DNA of 64,000 nucleotides from Solirubrobacterales bacterium (GCA_035705945.1 DASSVR010000025.1:11508-75507); one strand, 5' to 3'. Shown: positions 1,399-59,325, numbered from the stretch's first letter. Notes: generated by a model from the sequence alone, not told the origin. Program-made: numbers and translations.

Positions 1399-1425
1399 GG
1401 AGCCGCCCCCCGAGGGGGCGGCTCC
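1399..1425. terminator. GC-rich hairpin between convergent genes
   Basis: GGAGCCGCCCCC-cga-GGGGGCGGCTCC is a 12-bp perfect inverted repeat. Neither side has a clear U-tract. Confidence 0.4.
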
Positions 1426-1461: not shown

Positions 1462-2061
1462 TTAACTCGATACGCCGAGACCATGCGGGCTTGTGACTGT
1501 GTATGTCGCTTCCCATTTTGCGGAGGGAATCGCGCCGCAGTCGATCACGGCGTCGACGTGCAAGGTCGCGTGACCTGAAGCGACTCCTGTCAGTTCGCCG
1601 AGGTGCGTTTTTTCAACGGTAGTGCAGTGTACGTACCCGATTAGAGGCACTCTCACTGTTACTGTTGCATCCTTAGACCACACTGTTCCGTTTGTGCCGG
1701 AGGTCCATTCAACTGTAAGTGTGCCCGGATCGTGGACTGTGACCAATCTCGTGCAGCCACTGAAGCTGAGGCCTGCTTCGGGATTTGGGCCCCCGTGTTC
1801 TGTGCCTTCACCCTGGATATGGGTCCCGGTGAAGGTCGTCGTGACTCCATGGACATGCGATGCGGTGCATGTGTTCTGGACGCTGCCCGATGTGTTTTTC
1901 AGGACTGCCGTGGTTTCTGGAGTAAGGCTTGCTGTGATTGTGACGGAGTCGTGTTGTGTCACCCCTGTTTCCTCGAGTGTCGTCGCCGAGGCGGTGCTGG
2001 CGAATGCCATGAAGGCCATCGCCGACACGGCGGCGAGGCCGAGCATCTTCAGATACTTCAT
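1462..2061 (-). CDS. Small secreted Thr/Ser/Val/His-rich protein, unknown function
   Basis: The 199-aa ORF has a Sec-type signal peptide (MKYLKMLGLAAVSAMAFMAFASTASA) and a strong RBS (AAGGAGAAATCAC-ATG). It has 4 Cys. Its G+C is clearly lower than that of its neighbours. Confidence 0.75.
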   Translation of the reverse strand: MKYLKMLGLAAVSAMAFMAFASTASATTLEETGVTQHDSVTITASLTPETTAVLKNTSGSVQNTCTASHVHGVTTTFTGTHIQGEGTEHGGPNPEAGLSFSGCTRLVTVHDPGTLTVEWTSGTNGTVWSKDATVTVRVPLIGYVHCTTVEKTHLGELTGVASGHATLHVDAVIDCGAIPSAKWEATYTVTSPHGLGVSS

Positions 2062-2220
2062 GTGATTTCTCCTTTGTCCGCCCGGGTAAGAGCCCGGGTC
2101 CTACTTGGGTACGAGGAGAGTCCTATCATCCCTGGGGCGCCATAGTCAAGGGGATTTGAGTAGTTTCTCGAGAGGAAGCGGCGTCCAGTCAAGAACGCCT
2201 AGGTATTCAGAGGGCCCGCC

Positions 2221-4881
2221 CTAGCAGGGCAAGCCGATCCGCGGCTTGCTCAGCTGCGTGCGCCCGTTCTGGGCGCGGAGGCGGATCTCGACGCGTGGTC
2301 TGACCTTGCAGAGGTTGCGGCTGTTTTCGATCAGGCCGCGTTTGCCGCCGAAGAGGTTCATCTGGAAGCTGGTGACGGGGGCATCGGGGAGGCCGAGGAA
2401 GCGGGTGCGGACCCTCGAGGTGCCTTTCTTCTGCACCGAGTCGATGAAGCCGACGAGGATGATCCGCAGCTGGCCGCGCAGGTCGGCGACGATGTCGGGT
2501 AGTTCGCGGGCGCCGCCGTTACTGCGGAAGTAGACGTTGCCGCTCAGCGGTTGGTCGAGCAGCGGGCTCTTCGCGGTGACCCTGCCGAGGATCGATTTCG
2601 GCGGGCAGGCCTCGGCCGCGAACTGCACCCGGGTGCAGGGGTTGTTGATGTGGGCGTTGTCGATGAACTGTGAGGCGGGCAGGCTCACGGTGGCGTGGGC
2701 GGTGTTGGCCTGGCCCGGTTTCTGGGTCAGCTTCGCCCGCACCGCCGGGTTGCCGGTGCGTTTGGTCGAGCCTTTGAAGGCGAGGCGCAGCTTCGGTTTG
2801 TAGGGGAGCTTGGCGCAGTCGCTGGCCCGGAAGACGCTTGAGGGCTCGGCGATCGCGCCGGTAGTGGCGGTGACCGTGGCGGTGATCTTCTTGGTGGCGC
2901 AGCTCGTCGGGTTGAGGGTGAATTCGGGGCGGTCGACCAGGACCCGGATCTCGCGGTAGGCGATCGGTACCCCTTCGAGGATCTGCGGCAGCGGATCGGT
3001 GGTGATCGTCGCCAGGGCGGTTTCGGGGTCGACGTTGATCGCGGCGCGGTTGACCACCACGCCGAGGTCGAAGGGTCCGGCCTGGGCGGGGACCACCGAG
3101 ACGACCGAGTAGGGCGCTCCTTTGTAGGGGCCGGCCAGGTAGGCGGTGGGGGTGGGCTTGCCGGGCTGCGGGATCCAGAGCGGCGCACCGCCCACGCCCG
3201 AGGAGGCGGCGAGGCTGCCGAGCCTGGAGCCGAGCGGGCAGGCGCCGGTGGCCGCCGCGACCTCGGGGCAGAGCTCCACCCCGGCGAGCTTCGCGAGGAG
3301 GCCCTTCGGCATGTGCAGGGCGATCGTCTGCGGGTTGGCTTCGCCGTCAGAGCGGGTCAGGGTGAAGGCGAAGGGGGTGTATTGGCCGCCGGAGGGGACG
3401 AGGCTGCCGGCGGCGAGCTGCGGGGAGAAGCCGCCCTTGCCGCAGCCCTGGGTGACGTGCAGCGGGGTCTGGCCTTCGAGCGGCGGGGTCCCCGACCAGG
3501 GGGTGAAGGAGTAGTCGATCAGGTAGGTGCCGCAGGCGGCCGGGGTGGCGATCGGCGCCCGCGGCCCGCCGAAGACGTTCAGCCGCAGCGCTGAGACCGG
3601 CACCTGGGGCAGGCCGCCGAGGGTTTCGATCCCGTCGAAGACGGTGGTGATCTGGCCGCTCAGCGGGTTTGCTTCGATCTCCGCCGGCAGCTTCAGGTGG
3701 ACGCCCTGGTCGTCGGCGACGACCCAGAAGCCGAAGAGGCGCCCGGGCTCTGGGGTGCGCTGGTAGACCGAGCCGTGCAGGGTCTCCTCGAGGGCCGGCA
3801 CCTCGGCTTCGATCGTGCCGATCTTCGCTGCATCGGGGCACTCGGCGGCGACGTTCTCGCCGAAGTGGACCTCTTCGGCCGAGCAGGCCTCGAGGCCGTC
3901 GGCGGCGGCGGGGTTGATCGAGAAGCCGGCCGGCAGGCTCACCCGGGCGCTCTTCAGGGTCGAGGTGGCGTTGCCCTGGGGGGATTCGTTCTGGGGGATC
4001 ACGAGTTCGGTGTCGATCCCCGTGGGGGCGGCGGCCTCGGGGTTGGTCAGATGGGCGCTGAAGGTGGGGGCGAATTTGACGTTGCCGCAGCCGGTGATCT
4101 GCGGGAAGGGGGCGCTCATCGTCGAGGGCTGATCGGGCAGCTGGTAGCTGCGGGCGGTGACCACGACTTCGCGTTTCAGGCTGCAGTCGGTCGGGTTGGA
4201 GATGAACGGGACTTCCGGCGTCGATACCGGTCTGCCGCCCGGCGGGGTTTCCCCGTTCACCACCTCCATCGGGGTGACCCGCTCTTCGTCGTGCTCGGAG
4301 GAGGCGGGGATCCCCCAGACCGTCGTCGTCGCTTCGGAGAGGCCGGTCACCGAGGGCAGGCTCTCGGCGGTGGCGATGACGCTGTAGTCGGTGGGGTCGA
4401 TGCGGACGTTGACGAAGGCCGGGTAGGCGCCGGCCATCAGGCCGAAGCGGGCGACGATGTCGGTGCCTTTCGGCGCCACCATGTTGTAGAAGGGCTCGTT
4501 GAAGACGAAGACGTAGGGCTGCAGGGTGCGCACCGCGGAGATCCCCACCTGGGACTCGAACGGGCAGGCGCTGGTTTCCGGCGCGGTGCCGAGCTGCTCG
4601 GCGGTGCAGCGGGGGATCGCCTGCGGGTTGCCGATCACCCCGGGCGGCAGCTCAATCTCGATGTCCTTGGCGGCGGCGTAGGGGCTGTTGCCTTTGCGGG
4701 TCAGGGCGACGCCGATCGTCATGTCGGCGTGGGCGCCGGCCTGTTTGTCGCTGAGGCTGACGAAGACCGATTCGATCGCGAATTTGTCGAATTCGTCTTC
4801 GCCCGAGGCGGGCGCGGCGAGGGCGGCGGCGAGGGCGAGCGCCGTGGCAGCGAGGACGGCGATCCGGCGCGCGGCGCTCAT
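2221..4881 (-). CDS. Large secreted protein, unknown function (886 aa)
   Basis: ORF 2221..5310 trimmed to the ATG at 4881 (MSAARRIAVLAATALALAAALAAPASGEDE, a signal peptide). This ATG overlaps the upstream stop as ATGA. The part of the ORF upstream of it is Arg-rich out-of-frame overlap with the preceding gene. Confidence 0.8.
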   Translation of the reverse strand: MSAARRIAVLAATALALAAALAAPASGEDEFDKFAIESVFVSLSDKQAGAHADMTIGVALTRKGNSPYAAAKDIEIELPPGVIGNPQAIPRCTAEQLGTAPETSACPFESQVGISAVRTLQPYVFVFNEPFYNMVAPKGTDIVARFGLMAGAYPAFVNVRIDPTDYSVIATAESLPSVTGLSEATTTVWGIPASSEHDEERVTPMEVVNGETPPGGRPVSTPEVPFISNPTDCSLKREVVVTARSYQLPDQPSTMSAPFPQITGCGNVKFAPTFSAHLTNPEAAAPTGIDTELVIPQNESPQGNATSTLKSARVSLPAGFSINPAAADGLEACSAEEVHFGENVAAECPDAAKIGTIEAEVPALEETLHGSVYQRTPEPGRLFGFWVVADDQGVHLKLPAEIEANPLSGQITTVFDGIETLGGLPQVPVSALRLNVFGGPRAPIATPAACGTYLIDYSFTPWSGTPPLEGQTPLHVTQGCGKGGFSPQLAAGSLVPSGGQYTPFAFTLTRSDGEANPQTIALHMPKGLLAKLAGVELCPEVAAATGACPLGSRLGSLAASSGVGGAPLWIPQPGKPTPTAYLAGPYKGAPYSVVSVVPAQAGPFDLGVVVNRAAINVDPETALATITTDPLPQILEGVPIAYREIRVLVDRPEFTLNPTSCATKKITATVTATTGAIAEPSSVFRASDCAKLPYKPKLRLAFKGSTKRTGNPAVRAKLTQKPGQANTAHATVSLPASQFIDNAHINNPCTRVQFAAEACPPKSILGRVTAKSPLLDQPLSGNVYFRSNGGARELPDIVADLRGQLRIILVGFIDSVQKKGTSRVRTRFLGLPDAPVTSFQMNLFGGKRGLIENSRNLCKVRPRVEIRLRAQNGRTQLSKPRIGLPC

Positions 4882-7800
4882 CGGCGGCCCCCCTGCGCTC
4901 GGCGCTGGCGTGGTTTGTGTTTTTTGACGCAGATGACCTTGCCGGCGCGTTTGACCTTGCGCTTGCCCTTGCCGCAGCGCTTGGGTTTGGGACTCGGCTT
5001 GGCGCCCAGCGCGAGGGTCTGCACCGCGAAGGGCGCCGGCGGCGGGCTCATCCCCGGGCGGCAGCCTTCGCCCGCGCATTCTTCTTTCACCGCTTCGGCG
5101 AAGCCGCCGCCGACCCGGGCGTCGTAGATCGAGGGCGTCGCGTCGACGTCTGAGCCGGTCAGGAGCTCGGCGCTGAAGAAGAAGACGTCCTCGCCCGTCG
5201 GGCTCACCGCCCAGAGGAATTCGTTGCGAAGGCTCTGGGGGGAGGAGATCAGGTAGAGGCAGCCCTCGGGTGCCGGCGGAGCGCAGCTGCCGACGCCCTC
5301 GGCCTCCCACTCATAGACGTCCTTGAAGCCGTCTGAGTCGCCGCCGACCAGGGGCTCGCTCGACTCGAAGAAGGCGCGCTGGCCGTCGGCGCGCAGGTTC
5401 TCGATCCAGGCCTGCGAGAAGGAGAGGGGGATGTTTTCCTCCCGTCTTTCGGTCTGCAGGGTCGCGTCTTCGTTAGGCGGGGCGCCGGTCGGGTTGCAGG
5501 AGAGGCACCAAAGCTCCCCGGCGGCGGAGTCGTAGCGGTAGATCTGCGCTTTTTCGGCGGGGTCGTAGTCGCTCAGCTGGGCGCGTGATTTGAACAGGAG
5601 GACGCTGCCGTCGGCGCTGGCGCGGGCGGGGACCTTGCCGAAGCGCCCGGGGAACTGGGGGTTTGCGGCATCGACCCAGAGGCCGAGCCCGTCGACGGTT
5701 TCGATCCCCGAGAGGACTTCCCCTTCGACGTCGCGGTCGGTGAGCGTGGCGACGAAGCTGACCTGCCCCTCCTCGGAGAGGTAGAGGTTCTGCGCCGCGG
5801 CCTGGGGTTCGTCGCCCTCGGGGTTGGGGCCCGATCCCGAGATCGCGGTCTCCGAGACGAAGTAGGCGGCTGACCCCCCCTGGGCGAGGAAGACCGGGAC
5901 GGCGTCGCCCGTTTCGCTGAACTCGATCACTTCCTCGCTGCTCGCGTCGAAGGCCTTCAGGTCGCCGTCTTCATCGACATAGAGGATCCGCCCGCCGCCT
6001 TCGGCGAGGCCGGCGTAGGTGATCCCTTCGCCGATCTCGAAGGTCTCTTCGTTTTGGTAGCGCAGGTAGAGCGTCGTGCCGACTTTGAAGGCGACGAGCT
6101 CGCCGTCGAGCGAGGCGCCCATGTAGAAGGCGTCTTCGCCGGCGCCGAGGGGGACCTCGCCGGGCAGCAGCGAGACCACCTTGGTTTCCCGTTCGCCGGC
6201 TTCGGGGCCGGGGACGCGGTCATAGATCGCGATCGTGCCGTCCGGCGCGGCGGTGGGCTCGAGCTGGATCGCCGGCGTGTTGCCGCCCGAGGTGAAGACG
6301 ATGTGGCCGCCGCCCCCTGAGATCAGCCGGCCCACCGCCCGGGGGTCGGTGCCGAGGCTGCCCTGGCCGATCAGCTCCGAGTGGCCGTCGGGGAAGCGCA
6401 CGTAGTTGGTCGGCTCCCCTCCCACCACCGCCGTGCCCGCCACCTCCGCGACCCAGAAGCTGTGGCCCTGGTCGGGCGAGCCGGTGCCGGCGATCACCGA
6501 TTTCGCCTCGGCGCCGGTGGGGCCGATGTAGGTGGTCTGCCAGCCCGCTTCGGTGCGGGTCGAGAGGTAGGGGTCGCCGAGGAAGGAGCCGGTGCCGGGG
6601 AAGCCCGGGATCGAGCCACCCTCGACCTTGAACGGCACCGCTTCGCCCCCCGGGGAGACCTGGCGGATCGTGAAGGAGTTGATCTCGCGGGTGGTGCCGA
6701 TCGGCGCCCGGCCGTTGGTGTCGGGCGGCGTCACCAGCTCATAGGCGCGGCAGTCGGGCAGAAGCGCCGAGAGGCCGGTGCGCAGCAGCGGGTTCGGGCA
6801 GAATTCCGGCGGCTCGACGGGGAAGCTCGGGTAGGTGGCGAAGCCCGCCTGGGCTTCGTCGTCCCCCAGAGAGTTCTCGGCGAAGACCCGGAAGCGGTAG
6901 CTCCTCCCCGCTTCGAGGCCCGTCAGCGCCGCCGAGACCTCGAGGTCGAGGTTGCCGGCCGGGAGCGTCCCTTCGCCGGCGAGCGTCGCCCCTTCGAAGG
7001 GGTCTTTGGCTTCTTCTTCGTTTTGCGCCGCCAGCTGGGCGGTGATGTAGTGGAGGGTGTAGGTGGTTTCGAGGTTGCGGGGGTTGACCTTGGCCACCAG
7101 TTCGGCTTCGGTTTCGCTGACGTTGGTGGCTTCGGGCGCTTTCACCTCCGGCTCGTCTTCGGTGACTTCCTCGAAGGCGAAGGAGTGGCCGGTCCCGGTT
7201 TTGTGGGAGGGGACGTAGAGGTTGCCCTTGCTCAGGCTGGTGGACCCGTTGTCGACCCCGATCTGCGCCCCGATCTCCCCGTCGAAGCCGCCTTGGATTT
7301 TGATCTCCGTCACGAATTCGCCGTCGGCGGTGAACTCGTAGAGTTTCTTGTTTTCCGTGTCGTGGGCGAACAGGTGGCCAGTGTTTTCGTCCACTGCCAG
7401 CGAGATGAAGTTGCCGATGTCTTCCCCCGGCAGCGCCGACTCTTCGATCGTGTCGACTTTTTCGTATTCGCCCGGCGGCGGCCCCACCACGCTCGTCAGG
7501 TCGAAGATGTCGATCCGCCTGATTTCGAGACCGCCCGGTTCGAAGCTCGCGTAGAGCCGGCCGCGTGAATCGTCCACCGCCACCCCGACGCCCCGCGCCA
7601 GAGCCGTTCGGACTTTTACGTTCCCTTCGGCGGCGGAGGTGTACTCGGTCACACCATCGCCCCTGGAGTTGACGAACAGGTGGTCGTTATCGGCGTTGAT
7701 CGCCAAGGCGGACGGTCGCTGGCCCGGGTCGGGGGCGAAGGCCACCGGATCGCTGCAGTATTCGATGTTGCCGGCTTCCGGTTCGTAGGGAGCGCACGGC

Positions 7801-8348
7801 GTGTAGCGGAGGATTTCCTTGCCGGGTGAAATGAAGACCCCGGCATATAGAACACCCTGGCTATCGACCGCGAGCGACATCGGGCCGAAGTTGAACGGGG
7901 CGTCGAGCACGATCTCCTCGATGAAGAGGCCGGACGGGTCGAAGATGTCGATCCGCCCTTGCGTGCCTTCGTCGTTTTTCCCGAAGACGCCGACGTAGAT
8001 GTTGCCGTGGAAGTCGGTGGCCACCGCCCTCGGGTCGTCGAACTTTTCGAGAGGATGATCGACCCCCGCCACCCCGGGCGGAATTGGACACAGCCCGGGG
8101 TCGGGGACTTCGTCGATCGCCGAGGTGCTGCAGTCGCCGGTCAGAGAGAGTTCCGGGTCGAAGACGCGTTCGCCTTCCGCCGCCAGCGCGGTCGGAACAG
8201 CCATGACCGCAAGCACGAGCCCGACCGCAAAGGTCCAGCGCAGGATGAAAGAACTTCTCCCGCCGCTCTTGCCTATCGCGTCCCGATTCAATGTAAGCCC
8301 CCCAATGATTCGTTCCCTGATAAGACCTCTGCTATTCCTCGTCAGCAC
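4878..8348 (-). CDS. Very large secreted multi-domain protein with NHL-like propeller, FN3-like module, PD40/TolB-like propeller and a Cys-containing polybasic tail
   Basis: The 1156-aa ORF has an N-terminal hydrophobic segment (FAVGLVLAVMAVPTALAAEGE). It contains repeated DxxGNIYV / VDSQGVLYA / VDDSRGRLYA-type blades, then an FN3-like stretch (GLEAGRSYRFRVFAENSLG), then DVYEWE / SIYDAR PD40-like motifs. The annotated start is GTG 8348. An alternative TTG at 8291 is preceded by GGGGGG. Confidence 0.75.
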   Translation of the reverse strand: MLTRNSRGLIRERIIGGLTLNRDAIGKSGGRSSFILRWTFAVGLVLAVMAVPTALAAEGERVFDPELSLTGDCSTSAIDEVPDPGLCPIPPGVAGVDHPLEKFDDPRAVATDFHGNIYVGVFGKNDEGTQGRIDIFDPSGLFIEEIVLDAPFNFGPMSLAVDSQGVLYAGVFISPGKEILRYTPCAPYEPEAGNIEYCSDPVAFAPDPGQRPSALAINADNDHLFVNSRGDGVTEYTSAAEGNVKVRTALARGVGVAVDDSRGRLYASFEPGGLEIRRIDIFDLTSVVGPPPGEYEKVDTIEESALPGEDIGNFISLAVDENTGHLFAHDTENKKLYEFTADGEFVTEIKIQGGFDGEIGAQIGVDNGSTSLSKGNLYVPSHKTGTGHSFAFEEVTEDEPEVKAPEATNVSETEAELVAKVNPRNLETTYTLHYITAQLAAQNEEEAKDPFEGATLAGEGTLPAGNLDLEVSAALTGLEAGRSYRFRVFAENSLGDDEAQAGFATYPSFPVEPPEFCPNPLLRTGLSALLPDCRAYELVTPPDTNGRAPIGTTREINSFTIRQVSPGGEAVPFKVEGGSIPGFPGTGSFLGDPYLSTRTEAGWQTTYIGPTGAEAKSVIAGTGSPDQGHSFWVAEVAGTAVVGGEPTNYVRFPDGHSELIGQGSLGTDPRAVGRLISGGGGHIVFTSGGNTPAIQLEPTAAPDGTIAIYDRVPGPEAGERETKVVSLLPGEVPLGAGEDAFYMGASLDGELVAFKVGTTLYLRYQNEETFEIGEGITYAGLAEGGGRILYVDEDGDLKAFDASSEEVIEFSETGDAVPVFLAQGGSAAYFVSETAISGSGPNPEGDEPQAAAQNLYLSEEGQVSFVATLTDRDVEGEVLSGIETVDGLGLWVDAANPQFPGRFGKVPARASADGSVLLFKSRAQLSDYDPAEKAQIYRYDSAAGELWCLSCNPTGAPPNEDATLQTERREENIPLSFSQAWIENLRADGQRAFFESSEPLVGGDSDGFKDVYEWEAEGVGSCAPPAPEGCLYLISSPQSLRNEFLWAVSPTGEDVFFFSAELLTGSDVDATPSIYDARVGGGFAEAVKEECAGEGCRPGMSPPPAPFAVQTLALGAKPSPKPKRCGKGKRKVKRAGKVICVKKHKPRQRRAQGGRR

Positions 8349-9419: not shown

Positions 9420-10262
9420 ATGAGCACCCGTCCTGGTTACGCATCGCGCGGCTGCGCTTGCCTGGCCGCTTTGGCCCTAGCCGCAGCGGTGGTTTCGTGC
9501 GGAGGCGGCGACGACCCGCAGGAACTCGACTACACCGCCGAAGCGGCGGGCAAAGCCGTAAGGATCGCGGCACCCGAGCAGGCCGAGGCGGGGCTTGCGG
9601 AGATCACCTTTAACAACGACAGCGATTCCGAAGCCGACCTGCAGCTGATCCGGGTCGAGGGCGATCGCACCCCGGAGGAAGTGGTCAAAGGCCTCGGAGA
9701 AGCGATTCGGGGCAAAGCCTTCCCTGACTGGCTCTTCGCCGCCGGTGGAGTCGGCTCTTTGGGCCCGGGCGAGACCGCCACGGTGGAGCAGGTGCTGCAG
9801 CCTGGCGACTACTACGCCTTCAACACCGAAGGCGGCCCGCCGGCAGCGAAATCGGCTGCAACGACCGAAGTGACCGGCGAGAAGTCCGACACGGAGATTG
9901 GGGAAGGCGATGGCGCCGTCGAGGCCGCCGAGTACGTCTTCAACGCCGACACCCTCCCCTCCGGTGAAGTCGAGATCGCTTTCGACAACATCGGCGTCCA
10001 GCCCCACCACCTGATCGCCTCGAAGATCAAAGGCGATGGCACCGTCGAGGAAGTCGAAGCGGCCTTCAAGGAAGAAAAAGGCCCGCCGCCGCTGATTGAA
10101 AAAGGCACGCAGGCGACCGCGGTCCTCGAAGGCGGCGAAGGCCAGTTGGTCACGCTAGATCTCGAGCCCGGCCGCTACGCCCTCTACTGCTTCATCACTG
10201 ATCGCCAGGGCGGCCCCCCGCACGCGCTGAAAGGGATGGTCGACGAAGTCGAGGTGGAGTAG
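9420..10262 (+). CDS. Lipoprotein with two cupredoxin-like halves
   Basis: The RBS is GGGGAGG. The signal plus lipobox is ALAAAVVSC-GGG. The second half carries candidate type-1 Cu ligands (PHH ... YALYCFITDRQGGPPHALKGM). Confidence 0.55.
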   Translation: MSTRPGYASRGCACLAALALAAAVVSCGGGDDPQELDYTAEAAGKAVRIAAPEQAEAGLAEITFNNDSDSEADLQLIRVEGDRTPEEVVKGLGEAIRGKAFPDWLFAAGGVGSLGPGETATVEQVLQPGDYYAFNTEGGPPAAKSAATTEVTGEKSDTEIGEGDGAVEAAEYVFNADTLPSGEVEIAFDNIGVQPHHLIASKIKGDGTVEEVEAAFKEEKGPPPLIEKGTQATAVLEGGEGQLVTLDLEPGRYALYCFITDRQGGPPHALKGMVDEVEVE

Positions 10263-52870: not shown

Positions 52871-52944
52871 GCGCCCGTAGCTCAGCTGGATAGAGCGCTT
52901 CCCTCCGGAGGAAGAGGCCACAGGTTCGAATCCTGTCGGGCGCG
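52871..52944 (+). tRNA. tRNA-Arg (anticodon CCG)
   Basis: The hand-folded cloverleaf has acceptor GCGCCCG/CGGGCGC, D arm GCTC-AGCTGGATA-GAGC, anticodon arm CTTCC-CTCCGGA-GGAAG and T arm ACAGG-TTCGAAT-CCTGT. No CCA is encoded. Confidence 0.9.
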
Positions 52945-52955
52945 CTTCTTGTTGT

Positions 52956-59057: not shown

Positions 59058-59073
59058 TCCGATCGGACGTCCC

Positions 59074-59188
59074 CCACATCTTCCAGGCCTTCAACTGCAC
59101 CTGCTGGAGTTGGCACCTGCCTCGAACTTGCGTCCGAGATGGTTGCCGGGGCTTCACTGGGCCAGTCCCTCCACCCCTCTTGATGTGG
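59074..59188 (-). promoter_or_regulatory. SAM-I (S-box) riboswitch aptamer
   Basis: The minus strand reads CCACAUCAAGAGGGGUGGAGGGACUGGCCCAGUGAAGCCCCGGCAACC...GGUGCCAACUCCAGCAG...GAAGAUGUGG. This matches the conserved S-box core, and P1 is CCACAUC/GAUGUGG. Confidence 0.9.
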
Positions 59189-59325
59189 CGCTTATGTGGA
59201 GGGGAAGATACTTGACAAACCGCAAGTTGTCCATCTCCGAGACGCATCGCACACGCTCTTCCGCACGCCCGTCTAACCTAGGCGCACGATGAACCCGCTG
59301 CGCGACGAGACGATGGGCCGAAACG

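Follow-up and report, generated by a model that had tools for sequence, protein, structure and literature searches.

Three consecutive genes on the minus strand, hereafter named A, B and C, lie within positions 1462..8348 of a 64,000-nucleotide (nt) stretch of DNA from a Solirubrobacterales bacterium (GCA_035705945.1 DASSVR010000025.1:11508-75507; this whole stretch will be called the window), and each of them is predicted to encode a secreted protein. Our reading, which we hold tentatively and at a little under an even chance, is that a lineage-specific cassette, of which the locus is one copy, would build an extracellular, cell-surface-associated structure. Related loci show the unit to be a cassette of uncultured soil actinobacteria, [C]n-A-B-[C]n, in which C paralogues flank an A-B core. 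B and C belong to no described family in Pfam, NCBIfam or the PDB. The layout of the cassette resembles that of secreted stalk-and-head surface proteins, which is a known type, and there is a real chance that the C component is something new.

Gene A (4878..8291) encodes a protein of about 1137 amino acids (aa), gene B (2221..4881) an 886-aa protein made of four homologous modules, and gene C (1462..2061) a 199-aa, Thr-rich, all-beta protein with four invariant Cys. The stop codon of A and the start codon of B overlap in an ATGA motif (4878..4881, minus strand) that would couple their translation and is preceded by a GGGGGG Shine-Dalgarno (SD)-like run, and 159 nt separate the B stop (2221) from the C start (2061). 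The three open reading frames (ORFs), the coupling, the gap, the Sec-type leaders and the lack of sorting signals had been noted at the same positions in a preliminary description of the window, and all were confirmed from the sequence. Homologue searches gave 361 sequences for A, 903 for B (word-indexed search) and 399 for C, which shows the three to be real genes and not chance ORFs.

Conservation and fusion of A and B

Related loci were collected by a genome scan with a B alignment (A2), a more diverse B alignment (A3) being too divergent for the purpose. It recovered 75 loci, every one of them in a metagenome-assembled genome (MAG) assigned to Solirubrobacterales or Thermoleophilia or left as unclassified Actinomycetota, and the neighbourhood counts given below cover 77 related loci. 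An A homologue was located immediately upstream of B, on the same strand, in every one of the 77 loci with upstream DNA, across B identities that range from 43 to 76%. Of the 79 A-B junctions, 75 retain the ATGA overlap and two more have TGATG. The conserved overlap shows that A and B would be made in fixed proportion from one transcript.

Cassettes are present three or four times in single MAGs, one of which is a 2.56-Mb chromosome, and also occur as tandem A-B-A-B arrangements. The closest relative of the locus (B 82% identical) has the order C-A-B-C in a different genomic neighbourhood. Given this move to a new neighbourhood, the multiple copies and the preserved A-B order, the cassette has therefore been inherited and duplicated as a unit.

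In some lineages A and B are not separate proteins. In P0369, P0373 and P0385, residues ~517-1143 of A precede B in a single fused chain (blastp, 35-37% identity, E 1e-75 to 1e-84), and in P0400, P0421 and P0438 it is the NHL and FN3 parts of A (see below) that are fused to B. The fusion proteins keep a basic Cys-bracketed loop that is followed by a Pro/Ser/Ala linker. Because some lineages encode the C-terminal propeller of A and B as one polypeptide, A and B are best seen as two halves of one functional unit. Moreover, the A proteins of some lineages have no NHL/FN3 half, which is thus dispensable there, and the core is therefore made up of the C-terminal half of A plus B.

No sortase-like or transporter cluster was found to be consistently linked to the cassette among the 77 loci. 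A protein of ~246 aa is encoded next to A-B cassettes in L001 (13538-14329) and in 37 other loci, including non-syntenic contexts (e.g. L017, L028, L042, L044, L047, L058, L064, L065, L072 and L074), with no copy in the window. This protein begins with a membrane anchor, contains a basic stretch and GXY repeats of the collagen type, and ends in a head region with Cys; its gene is often followed by that of a 150-aa lipoprotein. A recurrent 250-aa secreted neighbour, 'sec6', was considered as a possible single B module, and this was rejected by negative hmmsearch and hhalign results. In three loci (L034, L037 and L054), five or six mce-like (MlaD-type) genes directly follow B, probably as coincidental synteny.

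Association of C genes with the A-B core

A hidden Markov model (HMM) of the C family identified 151 ORFs in 58 of the 77 loci, 146 of them on the same strand as A-B. Up to 0.5 kb from A-B they number 7.2 per 10 kb, compared with 0.05 per 10 kb at a distance of 5-10 kb, and C genes are more than 100-fold enriched right beside the core. The distribution shows the C genes to be linked to A-B far beyond what chance would be expected to produce. Copy number ranges from 0 to 10 and the side of A-B on which the copies lie varies; the window has only one C gene in its 64 kb, adjoining A-B on the side of B. The preliminary description had proposed a dedicated, exported and undescribed three-gene module. 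The genes do co-occur strongly across other genomes, and the dedicated, exported and undescribed character held up, whereas the fixed set of three genes has to be replaced by an A-B core with 0 to 10 flanking C paralogues on either side. The cassette occupies roughly 7 to 10 kb.

Export signals

Read straight from the sequence, all three proteins have Sec-type leaders, and those of B and C show the canonical n-h-c organization. With a slash marking the end of the leader, the B leader is MSAARRIAVLAATALALAAALAAPASG/EDE and the C leader is MKYLKMLGLAAVSAMAFMAFASTASA/TT, while the A leader (8181..8291, AVPTALA/AEGE, placed from the sequence and the homologue alignment) ends ...RSSFILRWTFAVGLVLAVMAVPTALA/AEGE. 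No LPXTG motif, lipobox, PEP-CTERM signal or C-terminal hydrophobic anchor was found in A, B or C. Export of the three proteins is supported by the leaders, by conserved Cys pairs and by the lack of cytoplasmic-type domains.

Protein A

The ORF of A is open up to a GTG codon at 8348, from which the preliminary description had derived a protein of 1156 aa. The gene itself stands, but this start is probably too long: the homologue alignment and the 1138-aa product of the closest relative both favour the TTG codon at 8291, giving 1137 aa, which is the probable true start. The call in the sequence collection itself, 1108 aa, would cut off the leader. The mature N-terminus that follows from the TTG start, AEGERVxDPxLSLxGxC, is conserved in the homologue alignment.

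Four regions were distinguished in the mature protein (residue numbers refer to the 1156-aa ORF), in agreement with the domain calls made earlier (NHL-like, FN3-like, PD40-like and a Cys/basic tail), which profile matches and the Pfam matches of the family now back. The N-terminal region (7149..8171, residues ~60-400) corresponds to an NHL-type six-bladed beta-propeller, the A family profile matching the NHL domains of TRIM3/TRIM2 (E 4e-13 to 2e-10) and the PknD sensor (E 1e-7) in the PDB. It is followed by an FN3-like domain (6819..7136, residues ~405-510), for which there are Pfam matches and profile matches to FN3 domains in the PDB, e.g. that of titin. Of 33 A homologues compared with Pfam, 24 match fn3 (or FN3_DSCAM) and 22 match SBBP repeats, while NHL and PD40 are each reported for 7. 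In the A protein of the window taken alone, NHL falls just under the Pfam cut-offs and fn3, with 18.2 bits, under its 25-bit cut-off; at the level of the family, the blade motifs of the NHL-repeat propellers (Pfam PF01436 clan) and the Pfam fn3 profile are both recognized. There are also weak matches to the SdiA-regulated and ScyF families.

The C-terminal half (5094..6800, residues ~517-1085) is a second, PD40-like beta-propeller region, delimited by the blastp matches to the fusion proteins and by PD40 matches; no sequence relative of this region was found in the PDB by profile search. The protein ends in a Cys-rich polybasic tail (4881..5078), in which a conserved CxGEGC motif is followed by a Pro-rich spacer, a Lys/Arg-packed Cys-x14-Cys loop of the disulfide type (RCGKGKRKVKRAGKVIC, 4929..4976) and a basic terminus. 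The body of A is strongly acidic (169 Asp and Glu versus 83 Lys and Arg) and the tail strongly basic.

Protein B

The four modules of B, M1 (4087..4794), M2 (3442..4086), M3 (2815..3441) and M4 (2224..2814), are ~200-235 aa each (~215 aa) and recognizably homologous, with pairwise hhalign probabilities of 94.7-99.6% and E-values down to 1.5e-23. The 16 invariant Cys of B fall into two pairs in each module, which would form putative disulfides. Neither as a single sequence nor as a profile did B match anything in Pfam, NCBIfam, PHROGs, PADLOC or the PDB sequences.

The AlphaFold2 model of B is all-beta (pLDDT 78). In Foldseek searches its closest matches were the Ig-like domains of PrgB (8beg_B, E 1e-12) and AgI/II C123 (7l0o, E 2.5e-7), and further matches included integrin alpha legs (E 1e-8), complement MG domains, factor XIII barrels, a large-adhesin tandem repeat and, as a distant fold match, the S-layer protein of Nitrosopumilus maritimus (E 6e-6, TM-score 0.12). 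B thus displays the tandem repeated beta-sandwich modules that are characteristic of fibrillar-adhesin stalks. The check for remote homology that the preliminary description had called for left both B and C, by profile searches and Foldseek, with no characterized family.

Among the 903 homologues of B, the best 120 are 66-82% identical, ~886 aa in length and all annotated as 'hypothetical', and every homologue bearing an organism name comes from a Solirubrobacterales MAG. Clustering at 50% identity gave 6,811 representatives of the family. Some relatives are giant proteins of 2,100-7,167 aa (P0361-P0366 and P0511 = MBI4897769.1, all annotated as hypothetical), which start with a signal peptide, contain 5 to 16 stretches matching B, each up to the span of a whole B, and end in a Lys/Arg-rich C-terminal region of ~140 aa.

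Protein C

C is rich in Thr (20%), Gly and Val, and is modelled with confidence (pLDDT 87). No match was found in Pfam, NCBIfam, PHROGs, PADLOC or the PDB sequences, whether with the single sequence or with the profile, and Foldseek searches of the model against PDB and BFVD gave no significant neighbour, nothing being better than E 0.026 and TM-score 0.40. An origin of C as a diverged single B module, or a kinship with A, was rejected (hhalign probability ≤5%), as was a role as a metal-binding protein with many His, there being no His among the columns conserved at ≥90%.

Within the C family, conservation is highest in the leader (1984..2061; motif MKYLKMLGLAAV..ASA/TT), with a mean column identity of 0.86 versus 0.66 for the mature part. 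It is followed by the first eight mature residues (TTLEV.GV, 0.83) and the C-terminus (YTVTSPxGLGV, 0.77), and the middle is variable (0.57-0.65), with loop insertions. The leader motif was found in 54 ORFs across the 77 loci, of which 53 are C ORFs and one is another ORF. Such conservation hints at an export or processing step reserved for these proteins, or else at a constraint acting on the 5′ end of the mRNA.

The codon usage of C is also peculiar. The G+C content at third codon positions (GC3) is 0.62, versus 0.87-0.93 in A, B and most neighbours (0.78 in the adjacent lipoprotein gene), and 19 of its 36 Thr codons are ACA, which is used 0 or 1 time elsewhere. This bias is seen family-wide (median GC3 0.71; ACA fraction among Thr codons 0.29 versus 0) and may be due to regulation through a rare tRNA, to avoidance of mRNA structure, or to the way in which the family itself evolved. 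In L060 (5576-6220, plus strand), a secreted, Cys-rich protein of 214 aa with a C-like leader, missed by the C HMM, is encoded just upstream of a distant A homologue, and may represent a diverged C-like family.

Expression signals of C

Upstream of C, a promoter-like element (2120..2149, minus strand) consisting of TTGACT (2144..2149) and TAGGAC (2120..2125) with an 18-nt spacer could be read from the sequence. It is followed in the 5′ untranslated region (2069..2098) by a hairpin, CCCGGG-ctctta-CCCGGG (2081..2098; minimum free energy -13.8 kcal/mol, z -2.1), and by the SD sequence AAAGGAG (2069..2075). The region also holds a GTACCCAA box. Past the C stop, a GC-rich hairpin (1402..1422, GCCGCCCCC-tcg-GGGGGCGGC) is a likely terminator. 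A strict sigma-70 scan of the locus found no promoter, the C element included, and a scan for T-run-dependent terminators returned only antisense or weak candidates and did not call the hairpin downstream of C; the signals of C were recognized only through comparison of the paralogues.

For this comparison, 86 non-identical upstream regions of C-family genes were examined. A looser promoter pattern (TTGA[CT], 16-20 nt, TAnnA[ACT]) is present upstream of 45 of them, a GGAG-type SD in all 86, and a 5′ hairpin (z < -1.5) in 71%, the stem being kept while its sequence varies. Each C gene would therefore appear to be a self-contained expression unit by its sequence, and the promoter-like element of its own, the 5′ hairpin, the universal strong SD and the terminator could be taken as signs of high expression.

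A second element, TTCTTGACT, lies at 2187-2192 (minus strand), 43 nt upstream of the conserved promoter-like element of C. It fits the extended -35 consensus of other C genes, with a poor -10 (GAGAAA), and may form a tandem promoter. The A genes of other loci have ordinary TTGACA-N17-TAnnnT elements. An operator motif, ACTCAnnTGnTCTTGAC, common to the upstream regions of A and C was discarded, as it precedes A only in this window (1/60).

Comparison with known surface systems

Like the fibrillar adhesins of Gram-positive bacteria (the Antigen I/II family and enterococcal PrgB, the top Foldseek matches of B), the cassette would produce a secreted stalk of tandem Ig-like beta-sandwiches, and in the relatives of B the module is multiplied into proteins of several thousand residues. 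Unlike in these adhesins, there is no sequence homology and no LPXTG/sortase signal in the cassette, the head (A) and the stalk (B) are separate, translationally coupled proteins, and the B module, of ~215 aa with two conserved Cys pairs, has no Pfam family. As a candidate anchor the cassette offers only a polybasic loop or tail. With regard to DEv-IgG and CnaB isopeptide domains, the likeness of B is limited to the fold-level match to PrgB and AgI/II. The fusion forms, in which a propeller is followed by B modules, also recall the integrin alpha chain, with its propeller head on Ig-like thigh and calf legs. However, the propeller concerned is PD40-like and lacks FG-GAP repeats, the TM-scores of B are only ~0.12, and there is neither a beta-subunit partner nor a transmembrane segment, so that the resemblance is one of layout only.

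In the Lactobacillus S-layer proteins SlpA and CbsA, attachment to the wall is through a highly basic region with affinity for teichoic acids. Similarly, A is secreted, is acidic except for a strongly basic segment, and has no covalent anchor, and basic C-terminal regions recur in the giant B-family proteins. There is no sequence similarity to SlpA or CbsA, though, and in A the basic element consists of a Cys-bracketed loop of 16 residues and a short tail, and can be internal in the fusions. The N-terminal propeller of A is related by its profile matches to NHL sensor or binding propellers such as the extracellular domain of PknD and those of the TRIM-NHL proteins; unlike in these, it is joined to an FN3 domain, a second propeller and a basic tail, with no kinase or RING domain, and it is dispensable in some lineages.

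C, for its part, is small, secreted and beta-rich like the subunits of fibres made without sortase (TasA, Ena, chaperone-usher pilins and archaeal threads), with which it also shares conserved termini, a variable middle, paralogue arrays and strong individual expression signals. It differs from them in having no sequence or fold match, and no gene for a SipW-type peptidase, a chaperone or an usher lies nearby. With respect to TasA/camelysin fibres, C has no Pfam match (Peptidase_M73 fold) or PDB match and there is no adjacent signal peptidase gene; with respect to chaperone-usher pili, Pfam detected no chaperone or usher and Foldseek matched neither B nor C to a pilin or chaperone. The carrier organism belongs to the Actinomycetota, which have a single membrane. 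Sortase-dependent pili and surface proteins find no counterpart either, given the lack of LPXTG motifs and of a sortase among the genes flanking the cassette in the window, and Pfam detected no SLH, CWB2, LysM or GW wall-binding module in A, B or C. A literature search on surface structures of Solirubrobacterales or Thermoleophilia returned nothing relevant.

A cell-surface structure and its alternatives

In the surface structure that we propose, B would form an elongated, disulfide-braced stalk of four tandem beta-sandwich modules with two conserved Cys pairs each, and A would supply the heads, namely the NHL propeller, the FN3 domain and the second propeller. The disulfide-closed polybasic loop of A could hold the complex non-covalently on anionic wall polymers, a role that the Lys/Arg-rich C-terminal regions may play in the giant single-chain relatives of B. 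The C proteins, possibly abundant, individually transcribed, small and beta-rich with variable loops, would bind the A-B scaffold or extend it as a coat; conservation of their leader, N-terminus and C-terminus suggests such an interaction. With A, B and C combined, the cell would gain an outer coat that is variable, or an adhesive fibril. The more precise functions put forward in the preliminary description (adhesin, fibre or surface-layer accessory) are likewise read from the architecture. Relatives of the three genes are very common in metagenomes, every related locus retrieved being from a metagenome or a MAG, and the cassette is the main candidate for what the carrier cells display towards soil particles, phages and cells in their vicinity. 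Defining the three families would annotate thousands of genes now listed as 'hypothetical'.

Several observations weigh against this reading. All relatives come from uncultured MAGs. A, B and C have no classical anchor (LPXTG, SLH, lipobox or transmembrane segment), so that surface retention via the basic loop is conjectural. The Foldseek TM-scores of B are low (0.11-0.31), indicating generic tandem Ig-like folds and no specific family. One locus (L079) has C arrays without A-B, and about a quarter of the loci are without any C within 10 kb; C may therefore work independently. The atypical codon usage of C, if anything, counters the usual signature of highly expressed genes. Finally, the NHL propeller has weak SGL-, SSL- and PAL-type matches and could be an enzyme rather than a binding head.

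This last point leads to an alternative in which A is an extracellular enzyme with an NHL, SGL or PAL-type propeller (a lyase or lactonase), B a scaffold or substrate-binding stalk, and C an unrelated cargo. Besides weak matches of A to SdiA-regulated, strictosidine-synthase-like, ScyF, SGL and PAL propellers, the presence of invariant H223, H388, E235, E321 and D366 in the NHL part would fit such an activity. Every enzyme-family match is under the curated cut-offs, though, a PAL-like three-His site was rejected as H325 is not conserved, and in several lineages the NHL half is missing from A while its C-terminal half and the B core persist, which makes an enzymatic cassette very doubtful. We consider it just as doubtful that only A-B is functional and that C is a fortuitous neighbour, both being expanding mobile paralogue families that settle in the same permissive spots. 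C arrays without A-B, the highly variable copy number and side of C, its codon usage, which differs from that of A and B, and its own transcription signals could all be accommodated in this way, but not easily the more than 100-fold enrichment of C within 0.5 kb of A-B, the strand shared in 146 of 151 cases, or the persistence of the association at B identities of 43-49% and after moves of the cassette to new contexts.

Other alternatives concern what C does. A sharper version of the surface structure proposed here would have C as a self-assembling filament subunit, polymerizing by donor-strand or edge-strand exchange with neither sortase nor usher, and A-B as its nucleator, tip or basal anchor. 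The conservation of both ends of C around a variable middle with loop insertions, the tandem paralogue arrays in which each gene has strong-expression signals, and the Thr/Gly/Val-rich, all-beta composition with four invariant Cys are what such a subunit could look like. However, the monomer was modelled with confidence (pLDDT 87) and seems to be complete, with no missing strand evident, Foldseek gave no fold similarity to a known pilin, TasA or Ena subunit, and C arrays also exist away from A-B; on balance we regard a C filament as unlikely. A further step, to which we give somewhat less credence, would make C a new-fold subunit of a previously unrecognized surface filament or coat in monoderm Actinomycetota, exported by way of a dedicated, hyper-conserved leader. 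Its assembly on a nucleator formed by the A-B stalk and propellers would involve no sortase, usher or type IV machinery, and the paralogue arrays would provide surface variation. Alternatively, the C proteins could be soluble, barrel-like ligand binders of differing specificity that are released and then dock on an A-B receptor at the surface, for capture and delivery. The best Foldseek neighbours of C are indeed ligand-binding or closed barrels (AttH, DynF, the TbpB barrel and designed barrels), the paralogues are diverse, and beta-propellers are common docking platforms. Yet these matches are weak and insignificant (E ≥0.04, TM-score ≤0.39), no transporter is consistently linked to the cassette and no conserved polar or His site is found among the invariant columns of C, and ligand capture seems improbable to us.

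Neighbouring genes and other features of the window

The genes flanking the cassette in the window encode a NAD-dependent epimerase, an MBL-fold hydrolase, a lipoprotein, an aminotransferase, DapF, MiaA and MiaB, and are ordinary chromosomal genes. The predicted lipoprotein (9420-10262, plus strand; 280 aa, leader ...AVVSC), which has no Pfam match, is encoded two genes upstream of A on the opposite strand. Other ordinary chromosomal features of the window include an S-adenosylmethionine (SAM) riboswitch (59073-59189, minus strand; 83 bits) and a tRNA-Arg(CCG) gene (52871-52945, plus strand).

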